In this document: in pieces, positions 1,233-22,217 of the stretch
Position numbering within the stretch: the first letter of the stretch is position 1
Layout: each line of letters begins with the position of its first letter
From: Bacillota bacterium
Lineage (GTDB): Bacteria; Bacillota_I; Bacilli_A; RF39; UBA660
DNA: 64,000 nucleotides
Assembly (NCBI GenBank): GCA_015059375.1
Contig: SVAN01000001.1
Coordinates: 20,179 to 84,178 of the forward strand
Reading direction: 5' to 3'
Position numbers and translations under genes: made by a program
The notes under the pieces: model-generated
Told to the model about the DNA's origin: nothing
Database searches by the model: none
What the model saw: the letters and a program-made list of their open reading frames with translations, nothing else

Positions 1233-1451
1233 TTAGTCAATTGAAATTGCATTTAACTTTAATAACTCAATAACGGCATTACATCTACCTTTAACACCAA
1301 GTTTTTGCATTGTATTAGAGATGTGGTTGCGAACTGTTTTTTCGCTAATGTGCAATTCTTTTGCTATTTCTTTGGTGGTTTTATTTAAGGCTAAAAGGTC
1401 AAAAATTTCTTGTTCTCTTTTAGTTAATAATTTATTTTTCATAAGCCTCAC
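1233..1451 (-). CDS. gerE: GerE, LuxR/FixJ-type HTH sporulation transcription factor (72 aa)
   Basis: LLTKREQEIFDLLALNKTTKEIAKELHISEKTVRNHISNTMQKLGVKGRCNAVIELL matches B. subtilis GerE (74 aa) across the whole HTH core, and the size also matches. Confidence 0.85.
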   Translation of the reverse strand: MRLMKNKLLTKREQEIFDLLALNKTTKEIAKELHISEKTVRNHISNTMQKLGVKGRCNAVIELLKLNAISID

Positions 1452-1513: not shown

Positions 1514-2005
1514 TTAACTTTGGAATTTTATTGTAATATACATTTGGGTTTGGTACAAATCTTGGATACTTTTAATTATTGTATTAGCATATTCTGTTCC
1601 TTGATTTTCACAAGATAAGATTACGTTAATCTTATTATCTTCGATTTTTACACAGGAATCTAGATTGTATTTATCTTTAAGCATTTGCTCAATTTCCATA
1701 ACTTTACCTTTTTTAGAATTGAGCAATTGAAGTGTTTCGTAGGCTTCGTTTTTTTCGTTAACAGAGGTTGTCTCGTCCAGTAATACTTTTTGAGCATCTT
1801 CCATTTGGGCTAAAATTTTTTCTTCTTCTTCCACTTTTAAAGCTACTATTACGTCAGATTCACTTACTTCAATTGTTGTAGATGAATCTTCGACATTTCC
1901 TGAAAAGACTGTTAATGCATCTTTGGGCATTGATACATAATAAATGCCTAAAATTAAAATTAACGAAAATAAAGTAATAAACCAAAGATTTTGTTTGTTT
2001 ATCAT
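1514..2005 (-). CDS. spoIIIAH: stage III sporulation protein AH (SpoIIIAH). Start moved to ATG at 2005, after AGGAGG
   Basis: MINKQNLWFITLFSLILILGIYYVSMP… is close to the B. subtilis SpoIIIAH N-terminus (MLKKQTVWLLTMLSLVVVLSVYYIMSP…). The C-terminal YscJ-like domain KDKYNLDSCVKIEDNKINVILSCENQ…IIKSIQ resembles …KSKGYADALVNAEGDKVNITVKSDK…IIDLV. The ORF-track N-terminal extension to 2164 has no RBS. Confidence 0.8.
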   Translation of the reverse strand: MINKQNLWFITLFSLILILGIYYVSMPKDALTVFSGNVEDSSTTIEVSESDVIVALKVEEEEKILAQMEDAQKVLLDETTSVNEKNEAYETLQLLNSKKGKVMEIEQMLKDKYNLDSCVKIEDNKINVILSCENQGTEYANTIIKSIQDLYQTQMYITIKFQS

Positions 2006-2107
2006 TTTATGTCCTCCTATATCTGTTAAATTATATAAATTTTTTTTTAGAATATTCCTAGGTGTAATTGGAAATTCAAAAAAATTATTAAAAAAGTTGT
2101 GATAAAA

Positions 2108-2136
2108 AAAAGGAAATTGACCATCTACTAGGTAAT
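2108..2136 (+). promoter_or_regulatory. sigma-A-like promoter for the exporter operon
   Basis: TTGACC, 17 nt, TAGTAT, about 25 nt upstream of the GAAGGGAGG RBS of the 2163 CDS. Confidence 0.35.
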
Positions 2137-2162
2137 ATATAGTATGAAGGGAGGAAATAGAC

Positions 2163-4217
2163 ATGAGAAAGAAAATGGTTATTGTTAAGCAACAAGATGC
2201 TAGAGATTGTGGCCCATGCGCGTTAAAATCTTTTATAGAATATTATGGAGGCTACGTTTCTTTAGAAAAAATTAGAGAACATGCGTATACTGACATAAAT
2301 GGTACGAGTGTGTATCATCTAATAAAAGCCGCACAAAAATATGGTTTTGATGCAATTGCAAAAAAATATCTAGATAATCAAATAAACGATATTCAATGTC
2401 CGGCTATAGTTCACGTTCGGTATGAAAATGGGCAAACACATTTTATGTGTTTATATAAAATAATGAAAGATAGTGTTCTTTTGATGGATCCAGCTAAAGG
2501 AAAAGTTGTTTTATGTAAAGATCAGTTTATAAAAATCTTTACTGGAGTTGTAATTGAGCTTTCATTAAAAAATGAGATTATAATTTTAGAGAAAGAAAGT
2601 AATATTTATAATTTATTCCTTAATATAATAAGAAAAAATAAAAAGTTATGTGTATCTGTGCTGTTAACTAGTGTTGTGTTAGCTATACTGACTATTTTCT
2701 CGGGATTTTATTTTAAAGTAATTTATGAATACATTCAAACCGGGGGTTATATAAACTCAATAAAATACCTAATTTATCTTTTTCTAATTATAACTATATT
2801 TAAAGTATTGTTTGAATTCATAAGAAATAATTATGAAAACCATCTCAATAAAAATATAGATATAAGTATTCTAAGGACTTTTATATCCCATGTTTTTAAT
2901 CTCCCTTTAAAGGTTATTAATAAAAGACCAATAGGTGAAATTTTTTCAAGAATCAACGAGATAAGTAGTATTAAAGAAATTTTTAGTCAAATATTTATTA
3001 CTTGTTTCTTAGATTTGATTTTATCTTTTGGTTCAGTTCTATTACTATTTTATATAAATAAAGATTTAGCTTTGATACTCTGTTTGACAATGCTTATTTA
3101 TGTAATTATGTCATTGGTTTTTAACCCTTATTTATATAGGAGAATAAGACAAAATATCGATTACCAAACTGAAAACAATTCTTTTTTGATAGATAGTTTA
3201 AATATGATAAATAGCATTAAAAATTTAAATAAAACTTCTATTGCATTAGAAAAAATTGAGCAGAAAATGTGTGTGCTACTTTATGATAATTTTACTTTTG
3301 CAAATAACTTAAATGTTTTTGAATTTTTTAGAAATTTTTTTAATGAAACTGGAGTATTTATTATAAATACTTATGGTTTTTATCTTATTTTTACTAATCG
3401 CTTTTCTCTAGTTGATTTAGTTATTTTTAACACTTTGCTGAGCTTCTTTGTGGATCCTATAAAGAAAATTATTGCATTAATTCCTAAATATAATTTTTTA
3501 CGAGCATCGTTTAGAAAAATATGTGATTTTGTTGATTTGGAAGAAGAAAAACTAGGTGTTTTAGAACATTTTAATAATGGTGATATATGTTTTAGAAATG
3601 TTGAATTTTCATATAATGACTATTCAAAAATAATTAGGAAGTTTAATTTGACCATTAAGTCTGGAGAAAAAGTAATGCTTAAAGGGCAAAGTGGATGTGG
3701 TAAAAGCACTTTATGTCAATTATTACAAAGGGTTTATCTGCCTACAAGTGGATTTATTCAAGTTGGTAATAAAAATATTTTAGATTATAGTTTGTTAACT
3801 TTGCGAAATCACATTATATATGTAGGTCAAAAGGAAAACCTATACACCGATACAATTAGTAATAATATTACTTTTTGGCAAGATGATTGCAAAGATTTTG
3901 ATAAAGTATGCAATATTTGTTTAATTAATGATATTGTTGATAAGAAAAAATTTAGATATGATTTTGGTATTGATAACAATTTTGCTAATATTTCGGGCGG
4001 TGAAAAGCAAAGAATTATATTGGCAAGAGCGCTTTTGCGGGGAGGTGATATCTTGATTTTAGATGAAGCATTAAGCGAACTAGATTTTAAATCTGAAGAA
4101 AAAATTATTAACAATATAAAGCGAGAATATCCTGAAAAAACATTAATCTATATTTCTCACAAAAATCATGATCGATTATTTAATCGAATTATAACATTAA
4201 GGAATAATAATGAATAA
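2163..4217 (+). CDS. peptidase-C39-domain ABC transporter (bacteriocin/peptide exporter of the ComA/LagD/SunT type)
   Basis: N-terminal C39 motifs are present: QQDARDCGPCAL (catalytic Cys) and …GQTHFMCLYKIM…LMDPAKG (His/Asp). A six-TM core follows. The C-terminal ABC domain has Walker A GQSGCGKST, signature ISGGEKQRI and Walker B ILILDEA. Confidence 0.9.
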   Translation: MRKKMVIVKQQDARDCGPCALKSFIEYYGGYVSLEKIREHAYTDINGTSVYHLIKAAQKYGFDAIAKKYLDNQINDIQCPAIVHVRYENGQTHFMCLYKIMKDSVLLMDPAKGKVVLCKDQFIKIFTGVVIELSLKNEIIILEKESNIYNLFLNIIRKNKKLCVSVLLTSVVLAILTIFSGFYFKVIYEYIQTGGYINSIKYLIYLFLIITIFKVLFEFIRNNYENHLNKNIDISILRTFISHVFNLPLKVINKRPIGEIFSRINEISSIKEIFSQIFITCFLDLILSFGSVLLLFYINKDLALILCLTMLIYVIMSLVFNPYLYRRIRQNIDYQTENNSFLIDSLNMINSIKNLNKTSIALEKIEQKMCVLLYDNFTFANNLNVFEFFRNFFNETGVFIINTYGFYLIFTNRFSLVDLVIFNTLLSFFVDPIKKIIALIPKYNFLRASFRKICDFVDLEEEKLGVLEHFNNGDICFRNVEFSYNDYSKIIRKFNLTIKSGEKVMLKGQSGCGKSTLCQLLQRVYLPTSGFIQVGNKNILDYSLLTLRNHIIYVGQKENLYTDTISNNITFWQDDCKDFDKVCNICLINDIVDKKKFRYDFGIDNNFANISGGEKQRIILARALLRGGDILILDEALSELDFKSEEKIINNIKREYPEKTLIYISHKNHDRLFNRIITLRNNNE

Positions 4218-4605
4218 CTATGATTTCCTTTTAAAAATAAAAACATCAAATTCCATCCTTTATATTGTTATTTTAATTATATTGTTATTAGTGTTTGTTT
4301 TGATGTTTGTGATATACACGTATAGTTCTTATCATACTATGGGAATATATAATGATGGTTTAATTGTAAGTGTTCCTTTAAAAAACTCTGACGTAGTAAT
4401 CAAAGGAAATTATTTAATGATTGAGAACCGTAACTATGAGTATGAAGTGTTAGAAATCTCTGATATTCAGGCAGAAAATTATATTAATTATCAAGATTTG
4501 CGTATTAACATAAATGAGAAGTTTAAGGAAAATCAAGTGGTAGAAATAACCTTTTATTACAATAAACAGAGATTGATAAAAAAAATAGTACAATTTATTT
4601 TTTAG
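4210..4605 (+). CDS. small single-TM membrane protein, translationally coupled to the exporter; candidate accessory/secretion or immunity protein
   Basis: Start overlaps the exporter stop (ATGA-type coupling). One N-terminal TM (ILYIVILIILLLVFVLMFVIY) and an ~90 aa extracytoplasmic domain. Position matches HlyD/LcnD-type accessory or immunity genes in bacteriocin loci, but it is much shorter than canonical HlyD. Confidence 0.35.
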   Translation: MNNYDFLLKIKTSNSILYIVILIILLLVFVLMFVIYTYSSYHTMGIYNDGLIVSVPLKNSDVVIKGNYLMIENRNYEYEVLEISDIQAENYINYQDLRININEKFKENQVVEITFYYNKQRLIKKIVQFIF

Positions 4606-4617
4606 AAAGGAGAGTTA

Positions 4618-4767
4618 ATGGTTATACTTAAAGATAATGATACAATAAATTACTGTGGTGGAGCAAAAATTTCGGGTGGAATTGCTCTTTTTATTGCTGC
4701 AATTGGTTCGTTTATTTTAGGGATAATTGATGGCATAAGTAATCCCAAAGCCTGCAATTCAAAATGA
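4618..4767 (+). CDS. double-glycine-leader bacteriocin-like prepeptide A (49 aa), not in ORF track
   Basis: AAAGGAGAG RBS precedes the ATG. MVILKDNDTINYCGG|AKISGGIALFIAAIGSFILGIIDGISNPKACNSK*: the leader ends in GG with hydrophobics at -4, -12 and -15 and an acidic residue at -8. The mature part is amphipathic with GxxxG-like motifs (GSFILG, GIIDG). It lies directly downstream of the C39 exporter. Confidence 0.5.
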   Translation: MVILKDNDTINYCGGAKISGGIALFIAAIGSFILGIIDGISNPKACNSK

Positions 4768-4771
4768 GCAT

Positions 4772-4930
4772 ATGGTGTTAAGTAGAGAGGAAACTATAGC
4801 ATATGTTGGTGGTGGTAAGCTGACCGCAGCGCTTTTATCAGCGGCAACATCGTTAGTAAAATCATTATATGAAATGGGCCAAAATTTAGGATCAACAATT
4901 CGAAGAATTTTTTCCGGTAATTATTGTTAA
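4772..4930 (+). CDS. double-glycine-leader bacteriocin-like prepeptide B (52 aa), not in ORF track
   Basis: MVLSREETIAYVGG|GKLTAALLSAATSLVKSLYEMGQNLGSTIRRIFSGNYC*: the leader fits the LSxEE…GG consensus and shares T-I-x-Y-x-G-G with peptide A. The mature part has small-xxx-small motifs (AALLS, SAATS). It starts 4 nt after peptide A's stop. Confidence 0.5.
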   Translation: MVLSREETIAYVGGGKLTAALLSAATSLVKSLYEMGQNLGSTIRRIFSGNYC

Positions 4931-4951
4931 ACAGTAGGTGATTTAAATTTC

Positions 4952-4986
4952 TTGTCAAAAAAACAAGCAAGTGTTATAATATTCCT
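4952..4986 (+). promoter_or_regulatory. sigma-A promoter for rpsU-yqeY
   Basis: TTGTCA, ~17-18 nt, TGtTATAAT (extended -10), then GAAGGGAGGG RBS before the rpsU ATG. Confidence 0.45.
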
Positions 4987-5006
4987 AGTTAACGAAGGGA
5001 GGGATA

Positions 5007-5195
5007 TTGATGACAAAGGTTGTAGTTCAAAATGGTAACGTTGATTTAGCTTTAAAAAAGTTTAAAGCCAAAGTTGCACGAAGCGGAGTCCCTTCAGAAC
5101 TTAAGAAGAGAAAATGTTATGAAAAACCAGGCGTAAAGAGAAGAAACGAAAAGAAAGAAAACATCAAAAATTCACGTCGTAGAAATCATAACTAG
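5007..5195 (+). CDS. rpsU: 30S ribosomal protein S21
   Basis: Basic small protein …LKKFKAKVARSGVPSELKKRKCYEKPGVKRRNEKK… with S21 hallmarks; conserved rpsU-yqeY pair. Confidence 0.85.
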   Translation: MMTKVVVQNGNVDLALKKFKAKVARSGVPSELKKRKCYEKPGVKRRNEKKENIKNSRRRNHN

Positions 5196-5928: not shown

Positions 5929-7069
5929 TTTTCTATATTTAAAAATTGAAGGTTATTCTTCGCAGAAAATTATTCAGAAGTTAACAGGAATCAATGTTAG
6001 CGTTTTTGATGTTCAAGAAAATGATAACATAGTGTATGTTAAAATTTTAGCAAATGATATTGAAAAAATTCAAAAGTATTTAAGAATGCTTGAATTTAAA
6101 AAAGTTAAATATACGGGTAAAGAATATTTTAAAAAAACGTTTAAAAGATATCGCATTTTGTTCATAGGAATGATTTTATCTTTTGCGTTTGTCGCTTTTG
6201 CATCAAATATTATAGTGGACATTGATGTGATTCACGAAGATGAAAATCTGGTGACATTAGTACTTGATGAACTTAATCAACACGGGATAAAGAAATTTGG
6301 CTTTCGCAAAGATTATCAACAACTAGAAATTATTAAAGATGAGATTAAAAATAAGCATTTAGATAAAATTGATTGGTTGGAAATTAATAAGGTAGGCATG
6401 CGATATGTTGTGCGTATTGAAGAAAGAATTCTTACGAAAAAGGAAAATATTAAAGAATATTGTCATTTATATTCAACGAAAGATGCGTTAATAACTAAAG
6501 TCAAGGTTTTTAATGGCGAAGCCGTTATTAATATTAATGATTATGTCAAACAGGGAACTTTGCTAGTTAGTGGCGATATAAAATTAAATGAAGAAATAGT
6601 TAATCAAGTGTGTGCAAGTGGTAGTGTTTATGCTGAAGTTTGGTACGATGTAAATCTTAAAATCCCTTTGGATTATTATGAAGAAACACCAACAGGAAAA
6701 GAGCGGAATAACCTAATTATTAATTATGATGGTGTTGATCATCAAATATTTAAAGATCGTCTTAAAAGTTATCAAGAAAAAAGAAAACTGATTTTTGATT
6801 TATTAGGTGTAAAAATTTATTTAAAAAAAGAAGAAGAGGTTATTAAAAAACTAAAAACATACACGGAAAAAGAAGCTATTGAAAAGGCTATTAAATTAGC
6901 TACAGAAAAAGTGGAAATAAAATTAAAAGATTCAGATAAAATTATAAGTCAAAAAATTTTGCAAAATACTATAATTGATAGTACAATGGATATAGATATA
7001 TTTATAGTAGCAGAGGAAGAAATTTCTAAGCAAGTTGTGACAAGAAAGGATGCAGAAAATGGTTTATGA
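5921..7069 (+). CDS. yqfD: sporulation protein YqfD (stage IV sporulation-like)
   Basis: 382 aa with a soluble N-terminal domain, a single central TM (RILFIGMILSFAFVAFASNIIV) and a large C-terminal domain. Size, topology and synteny with yqfC/ybeY match YqfD. Confidence 0.65.
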   Translation: MNSFLYLKIEGYSSQKIIQKLTGINVSVFDVQENDNIVYVKILANDIEKIQKYLRMLEFKKVKYTGKEYFKKTFKRYRILFIGMILSFAFVAFASNIIVDIDVIHEDENLVTLVLDELNQHGIKKFGFRKDYQQLEIIKDEIKNKHLDKIDWLEINKVGMRYVVRIEERILTKKENIKEYCHLYSTKDALITKVKVFNGEAVININDYVKQGTLLVSGDIKLNEEIVNQVCASGSVYAEVWYDVNLKIPLDYYEETPTGKERNNLIINYDGVDHQIFKDRLKSYQEKRKLIFDLLGVKIYLKKEEEVIKKLKTYTEKEAIEKAIKLATEKVEIKLKDSDKIISQKILQNTIIDSTMDIDIFIVAEEEISKQVVTRKDAENGL

Positions 7070-7676
7070 TTTATTTAAAAGTAGCTTAATTACAATGTGG
7101 CCTTCTTTAGTTATTGTTACCGTTACATTAATAACAATCCGTTTTGCGTATTTAAAAAATCAACGTGGCCCATTTTCTTTTTATCGTGAGTTTTGGACAT
7201 TAATATCAGTTGTTTATATGTTACTTTTATATCAAATGGTGACCAGGGTAGATATAAATGCTTCAAGTGGAATTAATTTAGTGCCATTTACAGAAATCCT
7301 TCGTTATGATGTTCATAGCGAGCTATTCTTCTATAATGTTGTTGGAAACATTGCGTTATTTATGCCTTTTGGCTTTATTGTATCTGCTTATGTTAAACCA
7401 CGAAAAATTTGGACTAATTTGTTTGTGGCTTTAATTGTAAGTGGAACCATTGAGATTGTACAATTAAATATTGGACGAAGTTTTGATATTGATGATATTA
7501 TTTTAAATACCTTAGGATGTATTATAGGCTTTTTAGGTTATGTAGGTTTTAAGGCAATAATTAAACATTTACCTAATTTTTTAAAAAGTGACTGGTTTAA
7601 TAATCTAATTTGTATTATAATAACTATCTGTATATTTTTATACGTTTTAAATATTATGGGGATTGCGTTTAGATGA
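7050..7676 (+). CDS. VanZ-family membrane protein
   Basis: Polytopic; …VPFTEIL…NVVGNIALFMPFGF… and …SFDIDDIILNTLGCIIGFLGY fit the VanZ-like fold signature. Confidence 0.5.
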   Translation: MQKMVYDLFKSSLITMWPSLVIVTVTLITIRFAYLKNQRGPFSFYREFWTLISVVYMLLLYQMVTRVDINASSGINLVPFTEILRYDVHSELFFYNVVGNIALFMPFGFIVSAYVKPRKIWTNLFVALIVSGTIEIVQLNIGRSFDIDDIILNTLGCIIGFLGYVGFKAIIKHLPNFLKSDWFNNLICIIITICIFLYVLNIMGIAFR

Positions 7677-20798: not shown

Positions 20799-22217
20799 AT
20801 GTTAAGAAAAACAAAAATAGTTTGTACAATTGGTCCAGCTTCTGATAATTACGATACACTTAAGAATTTAATGCTAAGTGGTATGAACGTTGCTCGCGTA
20901 AATTTTTCACACGGTACATGGGATGAACAAGGGCCAAAGGTAAATTTAATAAAAAAAGTAAGAGAAGAATTAGGATTACCAATTGCAATTTTGTTAGATA
21001 CTAAAGGTCCAGAAATAAGATTGGGTAAATTTATTGAAAAGGTATATTTGACTGAGGGTAATATATTTGTTTTACGCAATGAAGAAATTGTTGGTAACGA
21101 AAGAGAAGTATCTATCTCATATAAGGACTTGTATAATGATATTAAGGTTGGTAGTACTATCCTTTTAGATGATGGATTAATCAGATTAGAAGTTGAAGCG
21201 ATAGATAATAAAGATATTGTTTGTAAAGTAATTAATAGTGGGTATATTTCAAGTAATAAAAGTGTTAATGTCCCTGATATTAAGTTGAATTTGCCATCTT
21301 TAACTGAAAAAGATATTAAAGATATAGAAGGCGGCATTGATTATGACATTGATTATATTGCTGCATCTTTTGTTCGAAGAAAAGAAGATGTACTAGCAAT
21401 TAGAGAGATTCTAAATAAATATAATTCTAAGATTAAAATTATTTCTAAAATTGAAAATAAAGAAGGAATTGAAAACTTTGATGAAATTTTAGAAATATCA
21501 GACGGAATTATGGTTGCTCGTGGTGACTTAGGAGTAGAAATCCCATTTTCGCAAGTGCCGATTGTTCAAAAAGAGATGATTAAAAAAACTTATGCTAAGG
21601 GTAAGACTGTTATAACTGCAACGCAAATGATGGAATCTATGATTCATGAGCCGAATCCGACTCGAGCTGAAGTAAGTGATGTGGCAAATGCGATTTATGA
21701 TGGAACCAGTGCTATTATGTTAAGTGGTGAAACTGCCACTGGAAAATATCCGGTTGAATGCGTTAAAAGAATGGTTCAAATTGCTACTGACGTTGAGGAT
21801 TCTATTGATTATTGGAAACGCTTCAAAATTAGAGAGATTCCTAAGGATAATTTTGAATTCATTATTAATCATGCAATGATAACGACGGCTTTAAATATTA
21901 ATGTTAAAGCAATTTTCTGTTATACCAAAACAAGCGATACGCCGAGAATTTTAGCTAGCTTACGACCAAAATGTCCAATTTTTGTTTCAACAAGTAACAA
22001 AAAAGTATATCATCAATTGTCAATTGGTTGGGGATTAAATGTTAGCTTAACTGATGAAGAAAAAGAAGCGAAAGAAATGATTTTAGATGATGTTAATCGT
22101 CGCGTTAATGAAGGCCTTTTAAATAAAGGTGATATTATTTTAATCGCTGGTGGTAAATATATAATTGGTAATGAAAAAGAGATAAACAAAAGTATTGGTG
22201 GAATTTATCAAATATAA
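20799..22217 (+). CDS. pyk: pyruvate kinase
   Basis: MLRKTKIVCTIGPAS…NFSHG…; …MVARGDLGVEIP…; 472 aa. Confidence 0.9.
   Translation: MLRKTKIVCTIGPASDNYDTLKNLMLSGMNVARVNFSHGTWDEQGPKVNLIKKVREELGLPIAILLDTKGPEIRLGKFIEKVYLTEGNIFVLRNEEIVGNEREVSISYKDLYNDIKVGSTILLDDGLIRLEVEAIDNKDIVCKVINSGYISSNKSVNVPDIKLNLPSLTEKDIKDIEGGIDYDIDYIAASFVRRKEDVLAIREILNKYNSKIKIISKIENKEGIENFDEILEISDGIMVARGDLGVEIPFSQVPIVQKEMIKKTYAKGKTVITATQMMESMIHEPNPTRAEVSDVANAIYDGTSAIMLSGETATGKYPVECVKRMVQIATDVEDSIDYWKRFKIREIPKDNFEFIINHAMITTALNINVKAIFCYTKTSDTPRILASLRPKCPIFVSTSNKKVYHQLSIGWGLNVSLTDEEKEAKEMILDDVNRRVNEGLLNKGDIILIAGGKYIIGNEKEINKSIGGIYQI

Follow-up and report, generated by a model that had tools for sequence, protein, structure and literature searches.

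The DNA analyzed here is a stretch of 64,000 nucleotides from contig SVAN01000001.1 of the metagenome-assembled genome of an uncultured Bacillota bacterium (hereafter the window, meaning this whole stretch, with a G+C content of 29%), in which four open reading frames (ORFs) are tightly packed on the forward strand between positions 2163 and 4930 (Table 1). They encode a 684-aa exporter that combines a C39 peptidase with an ATP-binding cassette (ABC) transporter, i.e., a peptidase-containing ABC transporter (PCAT); a 131-aa membrane protein; and two short prepeptides with double-glycine leaders, which we term PepA and PepB. An earlier note on this DNA had described these genes as an unannotated operon for a two-peptide bacteriocin. 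All four ORFs are indeed present at the coordinates and in the orientation that it gave, and the word “unannotated” is apt for the NCBI record, in which the exporter is MBE6155151.1 and the 131-aa protein is MBE6155152.1 (E7164_00135), a numbering in which no accession is free for the two peptides. By contrast, pepA and pepB are among the genes predicted, in each case without a name, by the callers of JGI, ENA, and Logan.

The ORF for the 131-aa protein starts 8 nt before the stop of the exporter gene (ATGAATAA), in agreement with the translational coupling proposed earlier. The pepA gene lies 12 nt 3′ of this ORF, with an AGGAG Shine-Dalgarno sequence 7 nt upstream, and pepB starts 4 nt past the pepA stop (the gap is 0 to 3 nt in other lineages). 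Lacking a clear Shine-Dalgarno sequence and starting so close to the pepA stop, pepB appears to be translationally coupled to pepA; hence, of the two ribosome-binding-site-proximal starts that had been claimed, only that of pepA stands. As the two genes are only 0 to 4 nt apart, their products are probably made in similar amounts.

Table 1. Features of the two-peptide export cassette and its boundaries in the window
Feature	Position	Strand	Basis
PCAT exporter, 684 aa	2163-4217	+	Pfam domains; PCAT1/ComA alignment
Predicted mini-adaptor, 131-aa single-pass membrane protein, cysteine free	4210-4605	+	Fold model and gene context
pepA prepeptide, 49 aa	4618-4767	+	AGGAG; homologs; dN/dS
pepA leader, MVILKDNDTINYCGG	4618-4662	+	Ends in Gly-Gly
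pepA predicted mature peptide, AKISGGIALFIAAIGSFILGIIDGISNPKACNSK, 34 aa	4663-4764	+	Follows the Gly-Gly site
pepB prepeptide, 52 aa	4772-4930	+	Homologs; dN/dS; adjacency to pepA
pepB leader, MVLSREETIAYVGG	4772-4813	+	Ends in Gly-Gly
pepB predicted mature peptide, GKLTAALLSAATSLVKSLYEMGQNLGSTIRRIFSGNYC, 38 aa	4814-4927	+	Follows the Gly-Gly site
Candidate sigma-70-type cassette promoter, TTGACC-17-TAGTAT	2117-2145	+	Consensus scan, 9/12 matches
rpsU promoter, TTGTCA-17-TATAAT with upstream TG (3′ cassette boundary, outside the cassette)	4952-4980	+	11/12 matches

The exporter scores above the Pfam cutoffs for Peptidase_C39 (111.7 bits versus 22), ABC_membrane (98 versus 28), and ABC_tran (90 versus 25), with the C39 domain at residues 5 to 134, the transmembrane domain at residues 166 to 432, and the nucleotide-binding domain at residues 492 to 637. 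Its alignments with two PCATs of solved structure, PCAT1 from Clostridium (Acetivibrio) thermocellum (4ry2; E value, 1e-90) and ComA from Streptococcus (8hf7; E value, 3.8e-77), cover the full length. In the HMMER alignment PCAT1 has the same residues at the positions of Cys16 (in RDCGP), His93 (QTHF), and Asp109 (MDPAKG), and the Gln upstream in the C39 site is also present (Gln10/11). Unlike HlyB-type exporters, in which the C39-like domain is inactive, the protein thus retains the Cys/His/Asp triad, and the description of the C39 domain as intact, which an absence of these residues would have undone, holds. The ATPase motifs are likewise intact, namely, Walker A (residues 508 to 516), the ISGGE signature (610 to 617), Walker B (630 to 636) with its catalytic Glu, the Q-loop, and the H-loop His666. 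With all the C39 catalytic and ATPase residues in place, the protein is predicted to be a catalytically competent PCAT. Its score does not reach the curated cutoff of TIGR01193 (peptide cleavage/export ABC transporter; 368.2 versus 523.85 bits) or that of NF045998, the Mycoplasma Mbov_0121 family, which it matches over its full length (331 versus 500 bits); hence, it represents a divergent branch, and its architecture and residues mark it as a PCAT despite these scores. It has the same C39 residues, type of transmembrane domain, and nucleotide-binding-domain motifs as PCAT1 and ComA, and it differs from both in falling below the TIGR01193 cutoff and in being paired with a putative mini-adaptor. 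The partner of ComA is the large ComB protein, and we know of no adaptor for PCAT1. A search of a genome collection with the exporter alone gave, among the matches listed, only an unrelated Saccharibacteria ABC transporter.

Profile searches across 5.8 billion proteins recovered 17 clusters of PepA homologs and 18 of PepB homologs, all of 48 to 57 aa save for two gene calls with N-terminal extensions (65 and 66 aa). None of these homologs is named or carries a Pfam domain. Searches of Pfam and NCBIfam at E values of up to 1 likewise gave no relevant match for either peptide, and neither falls in a known bacteriocin family. In every locus that could be read, pepA and pepB are adjacent to each other and 3′ of the exporter gene; this includes L006 (we designate related loci and contigs by L numbers), in which pepB is intact though the gene caller missed it. 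A metagenome search with the PepB alignment gave only four short contigs. Pairwise comparisons by the Nei-Gojobori method among seven lineages gave ratios of nonsynonymous to synonymous substitution (dN/dS) of 0.11 to 0.44 for pepA and 0.05 to 0.37 for pepB; dS is near saturation, making these values rough, with a direction that is unambiguous. Third codon positions account for most of the nucleotide differences and second positions for the fewest. Hence, pepA and pepB are real coding genes under purifying selection, contrary to what the earlier note had named as the outcome that would undo its proposal.

The Gly-Gly that ends the leader is invariant in all homologs of both peptides, in accordance with the two tandem double-glycine prepeptides reported earlier. 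The leaders (15 aa in PepA and 14 aa in PepB) have a common pattern, with Leu at position −12, an acidic residue (Asp or Glu) at −8, Ile at −6, and Tyr at −4 ahead of the Gly-Gly, and in the distant relatives L009 and L019 they take the classical form EL..I.GG. In the mature part of PepA a GxxxG motif (G35-I-I-D-G39), N42-P43-K44, and C46 are invariant across five aligned lineages, and every cluster retains the Cys as well as the Gly-Gly site of the leader. The corresponding motif of PepB is G36-Q-N-L-G40, usually GQNLG or GQNFG, of which the GQ and the second Gly are invariant in a 17-sequence alignment, as are R45 and a Cys that ends the peptide in most members and is otherwise found no more than three residues from the C terminus. 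Mature PepA has a net charge of +2, a grand average of hydropathicity of 0.93, and a hydrophobic core like that of a transmembrane (TM) segment, and mature PepB has a net charge of +3 and forms a strongly amphipathic predicted helix (hydrophobic moment, 0.68). Each mature peptide thus has a single invariant cysteine, in the C-terminal part, which suggests that the two may form a disulfide-linked heterodimer. Searches of the literature gave nothing specific on interchain disulfides in class IIb bacteriocins, and, if this link is real, we know of no other pair of the class IIb type that is covalently joined. A six-frame scan of the window for ORFs with the pattern Met-leader-Gly-Gly-short peptide gave four matches, and the two other than pepA and pepB, at 22077 and 31914, lack the motifs of either peptide.

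The 131-aa protein belongs to no Pfam family. Its sole NCBIfam match is to NF045999, the MAG1140 family, at 18.2 bits (E value, 0.002) against a cutoff of 35, a match that spans its full length (positions 6 to 125 of 126). An exhaustive profile search yielded 251 representative clusters at E values of ≤1e-3, the best 150 of which are of about 125 to 155 aa, apart from a few truncated gene calls. The MAG1140 model is matched by 14 of 98 relatives at E values of ≤0.01 (the best being 1.3e-6), so that the family would be, at best, a remote relative or sister group of the MAG1140 family and not a part of it. An AlphaFold2 model built from a 98-sequence alignment (mean predicted local distance difference test score, 93.2), which replaced a first model from 5 sequences (67.6), predicts a TM helix at residues 15 to 34, followed by a six-stranded β-barrel that includes a single short helix and, at the C terminus, another helix, and resembles the β-barrel domain alone of membrane fusion proteins. 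Thus, it has in common with membrane fusion proteins and periplasmic adaptors such as MacA, AcrA, EmrA, ZneB, BesA, and Spr0693 a membrane anchor and a predicted β-barrel of their type, and it differs from them in having no α-hairpin, lipoyl, or membrane-proximal domain and no detectable similarity at the sequence level. HlyD-type Pfam domains matched none of the 98 family members, a sequence search of the PDB was likewise without a match, and DUF6377 was matched weakly by 2 of the 98. In light of the barrel fold in the model and the conserved overlap between its start and the stop of the exporter gene, we interpret the protein as a putative minimal, β-barrel-only adaptor of the PCAT. The accessory proteins of the ComB/LcnD type are, by comparison, HlyD-family proteins of about 450 aa. 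A role as a thiol oxidoreductase of the PedC-like or thioredoxin-like type was ruled out, as the protein has no cysteine. A parallel is suggested by the Mycoplasma families Mbov_0121 (NF045998) and MAG1140 (NF045999), which likewise comprise a PCAT and a protein of about 130 aa and whose gene adjacency in mycoplasmas is only presumed; we found no functional literature on these families and nothing specific on C39 peptidases in Mollicutes.

Related loci were recovered from at least seven distinct lineages (L003-5, L006, L007, L008, L011/12, L013, and L014), in every case through the cassette proteins, so that this set does not show what share of the clade has the cassette and leaves its status as a core element unproven. 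In L003-5, L006, and L011/12 the order runs from a SpoIIIAH-like gene through the genes for the PCAT, a 131- to 133-aa protein, PepA, and PepB to rpsU, yqeY, yabP, yqfD, and onward; in L007 and L013 the cassette is likewise followed by this series of genes from rpsU on; and L008 and L014 are fragments that are consistent with this order as far as they extend. The identities to the window proteins in four lineages are 56 to 71% for the PCAT, 35 to 57% for the putative adaptor, 50 to 71% for PepA, and 52 to 77% for PepB, and they track those of the flanking core genes (43 to 68% for YqfD and 59 to 79% for the VanZ-like protein). No mobile-element genes flank the cassette, and the putative adaptor has no relatives in plasmid or phage collections. 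Given the constant site in related lineages and the divergence in step with the neighbors, we judge the cassette to be vertically inherited and not an accessory island, which reverses the earlier suggestion that it interrupts synteny and looks accessory.

Two more distant relatives extend this picture. In L019 (L019:3906-7138), from a distant lineage, the genes for a PCAT, a 143-aa adaptor homolog (which matches the profile at an E value of only 1e-8), PepA, and PepB lie directly upstream of rpsU, whereas the genes further upstream differ (a tRNA and desulfoferrodoxin) and yabP and yqfD are absent from the region. A sporulation-specific role for the cassette was rejected on these grounds. In L009 the same four genes are followed (L009:1275-2153) by a gene for a 292-aa protein without a Pfam match in the place of rpsU. 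The linkage of the cassette to rpsU is hence common and not universal, and L009 and L019 keep the same gene order and peptide families although their accessory proteins are only weakly similar.

No immunity gene was recognized in the window cassette, in which the gene for the 131-aa protein is the only extra one, and a six-frame scan found no pepB-like decoy ORF in the window. The organism might be protected by the 131-aa protein itself, by having no target for the peptides, or by a gene that is not linked to the cassette. In a variant of the cassette on three divergent metagenome contigs (L015:389-829, L016:1294-1734, and L017:919-1362), the ABC gene leads straight into pepA′, pepB′, and a third ORF. 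This third ORF, of 48 to 52 aa, is colinear with PepB, having the same length, GxxxG, an RR, and the terminal Cys, while its N-terminal half is hydrophobic (a predicted TM helix) and has no Gly-Gly site. As a leaderless, apparently membrane-retained PepB look-alike in the usual position of a class IIb immunity gene, it is a plausible candidate for a decoy-type immunity protein, and its presence would support a toxic function of the pair. These three contigs end inside the ABC gene, upstream of which an adaptor gene may lie.

The cassette has several parallels with lactococcin G-type class IIb loci (PMC2850506). As in these, the two prepeptide genes are adjacent in one operon, each product has a double-glycine leader and a GxxxG motif, and the same operon encodes a C39-ABC exporter dedicated to the peptides along with an accessory protein; further, the mature peptides are predicted to be like the cationic, helical, hydrophobic or amphipathic peptides of 30 to 40 aa found there. 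The leaders too are of the class IIb kind, that of PepB being one residue short of the 15- to 30-residue range given for double-glycine leaders in PMC2850506. The window cassette differs in that the exporter genes come first, in that it has no separate immunity gene, and in that its accessory protein is a 131-aa TM segment plus predicted β-barrel versus a large HlyD-family protein. It also differs in the invariant C-terminal Cys of each peptide (PMC2850506 is silent on cysteine), in the lack of sequence similarity to known peptides, and in the lack of three-component regulation. Unlike typical bacteriocin loci, it is chromosomal, syntenic, and by our reading vertically inherited. The term “class IIb-like” used in the earlier note is hence borne out by the adjacent genes, the GxxxG motifs, the cationic character, and the combination of one hydrophobic and one amphipathic peptide, and it does not extend to an operon immunity gene or to membership by sequence in a described bacteriocin family.

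Taking together the PCAT with its catalytic residues, the coupled putative adaptor, the conserved Gly-Gly, GxxxG, and Cys features of the peptides, and the purifying selection on them, we think it fairly probable that the cassette is a self-contained unit that processes and exports a class IIb-like, two-peptide membrane-active pair, whose sequence features suggest an antimicrobial function. The C39 domain would cut the 14- to 15-aa leaders after the Gly-Gly during export, and the transmembrane domain of the PCAT would pass the 34-aa hydrophobic and 38-aa amphipathic cationic peptides, with the 131-aa protein serving as a minimal exporter adaptor in place of proteins of the ComB/LcnD type. Outside the cell, the helices of PepA and PepB would pair via GxxxG, in the manner in which class IIb peptides pack helix to helix (PMC2850506), a disulfide between the C-terminal cysteines would probably lock the heterodimer, and the latter would permeabilize the membranes of competitors.

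The sequences around the cassette bear on its expression. The candidate cassette promoter lies just 5′ of an AGGGAGG ribosome-binding site in a region that, with a TATATA box and GAAGGGAGG, is conserved in four lineages; its assignment is weak, since the scan gave fewer sites than shuffled sequence. When positions 2100 to 2160 are aligned with L003, L006, and L011, AAAGGAAAT-N7-CTTTTCCGGTATATATA is common to three of the four lineages, forming, beside a −10-like box, an imperfect GGAAA/TTTCC inverted repeat whose right arm has diverged in the window. This repeat, upstream of the exporter gene, may be an operator. On the 3′ side, the rpsU promoter starts about 20 nt past the pepB stop and is, together with the leader (TTGTCA-17-TGTTATAAT ... 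GAAGGGAGGGATATTGATG), nearly invariant in seven lineages (window positions 4931 to 5010 aligned with L003, L006, L007, L011, L013, and L014). A scan of the window found no terminator-like site between pepB and rpsU, so that, with the promoter this close, transcripts of the cassette may extend into rpsU. In L019 a hairpin and then a T-run follow pepB. An Rfam scan of the window gave only tRNAs. The only regulator near the cassette is a stand-alone 72-aa GerE/LuxR helix-turn-helix protein (1233-1451, reverse strand), and no histidine kinase or receiver-domain regulator was found near it, as had been noted before; a promoter of the housekeeping type probably drives the cassette, which would have no regulator of its own.

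The placement of the cassette between spoIIIAH and the rpsU promoter was also confirmed, the upstream gene scoring 39.7 bits against a Pfam cutoff of 30.6 for SpoIIIAH-like proteins and the downstream gene encoding ribosomal protein S21. Upstream, on the opposite strand, are the SpoIIIAH-like gene, the gene for the GerE/LuxR helix-turn-helix protein, and a Germane-domain gene, and downstream are rpsU, yqeY, yabP/yqfC, yqfD, a VanZ-like gene, and ybeY. The SpoIIIAH-like gene (1514-2164, reverse strand), listed as 216 aa in the mechanical ORF list and as a 163-aa product in the gene calls of related contigs, is solitary, lying beside the gerE-like and gerM-like (Germane) genes and outside any spoIIIA operon. 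The VanZ-like membrane protein gene (7050-7676, forward strand), between yqfD and ybeY, is present in every cassette-bearing lineage, including L019; in B. subtilis this position is, we assume, that of phoH-yqfF. A link of the VanZ-like protein to self-protection would be pure speculation. Between era and recO, a conserved ORF of 29 aa is called in several lineages (L003:10859-10948, L006:12139-12228, L011:11657-11746, and L021:4422-4511), at what we take to be the position of yqzL in B. subtilis.

Two alternatives can be dealt with briefly. That the two small ORFs arose by chance and the substrate of the exporter is encoded elsewhere might be suggested by their shortness, their absence from the NCBI annotation, and their lack of a Pfam or NCBIfam family, but 17 to 18 clusters each, of the same length and paired after the exporter and adaptor genes, with dN/dS values between 0.05 and 0.44, changes dominated by third positions, and invariant Gly-Gly, GxxxG, and Cys, have already refuted this, and we give it practically no credence. 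A recent acquisition of the cassette as an accessory island would accord with the frequent mobility of bacteriocin loci and with SpoIIIAH and rpsU being, to our knowledge, not neighbors in Bacillus subtilis. It is already contradicted by the identical location and gene order in at least seven distinct lineages, the cassette identities (52 to 72% for the ABC protein) that move with those of the flanking core genes (43 to 71% for YqfD), the linkage to rpsU kept in L019 despite different upstream genes, and the want of mobile-element genes around the cassette and of plasmid or phage matches; we regard it as very improbable.

The proposal of a membrane-active antimicrobial pair itself meets several difficulties. 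Neither peptide falls in a bacteriocin family of Pfam or NCBIfam; the window cassette is without the immunity gene that always accompanies the two class IIb structural genes (PMC2850506); the disulfide is proposed solely from the two cysteines, which are invariant and so show no covariation; and the cassette has been inherited vertically at one site over deep divergence (ABC proteins down to 52% identity, with L019 further removed), a strictness uncommon among bacteriocins that may point to a housekeeping function. One possibility is accordingly that the exported pair is no weapon and has a conserved physiological role, e.g., as a membrane or surface heterodimer or as a cell-cell signal. This would fit the common site upstream of rpsU with its co-divergence, the missing immunity gene, the lack of plasmid or phage relatives, the way in which the cassette abuts the rpsU promoter without a terminator, and the strong purifying selection on both peptides in place of the diversifying pattern frequent in bacteriocins; a passage in PMC7018657 also counts signals besides toxins among PCAT substrates. 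Yet no sensor kinase or regulator lies near the cassette, cationic GxxxG peptides of 34 to 38 aa, one hydrophobic and one amphipathic, resemble pore formers and not pheromones, the decoy-like PepB paralog of L015-L017 suggests a need for self-protection, and the manner in which the loci were recovered leaves a core status unproven; we consider such a role unlikely, though worth keeping in view. The missing immunity gene could also be accounted for if the 131-aa protein were itself the immunity protein, or served both immunity and export, which would make the operon a complete class IIb locus. It is the sole extra gene product of the operon, is predicted to be membrane anchored with an extracytoplasmic domain, and has a precedent in the accessory proteins of two-peptide systems, which possibly act in immunity and/or secretion (PMC2850506); moreover, L015-L017 have no such gene between the ABC gene and pepA′ and have a different small membrane protein after pepB′, an arrangement compatible with interchangeable roles of the two proteins. 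On the other hand, these contigs end in the ABC gene and an adaptor gene could lie upstream of it, the overlap of its start with the stop of the ABC gene is conserved, the modeled fold matches transporter adaptors, and the remote kinship is with MAG1140 (NF045999), the accession next after that of the PCAT family NF045998, their gene neighborhood being presumed. We therefore see an immunity role for this protein as a rather poor prospect.

Beyond the reading of the cassette as an export module for a membrane-active pair, we tentatively raise a broader possibility, which we hold with less confidence, that it represents an undescribed and deeply conserved four-part system of low-GC, Bacilli-type gut and rumen bacteria, perhaps kin to the PCAT-MAG1140 pair of mycoplasmas, in which a PCAT with a β-barrel-only adaptor would export a disulfide-linked heterodimer and which would be vertically inherited next to rpsU without an immunity gene. 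It might then be either a new structural subclass of two-peptide bacteriocins, with decoy immunity in some lineages, or a core, nonantagonistic pair. If true, this would give the field of PCATs and two-peptide bacteriocins a new peptide family, the members of which are short enough for direct synthesis, and a new minimal transporter adaptor. The family of the 131-aa protein could reveal the portion of a membrane fusion protein that suffices for a Gram-positive peptide exporter, and it would offer a functional lead for the unexplained Mbov_0121 and MAG1140 families of mycoplasmas. Further, core-like inheritance without an immunity gene would call into question the assumption that all loci combining a PCAT with Gly-Gly peptides are accessory weapons.

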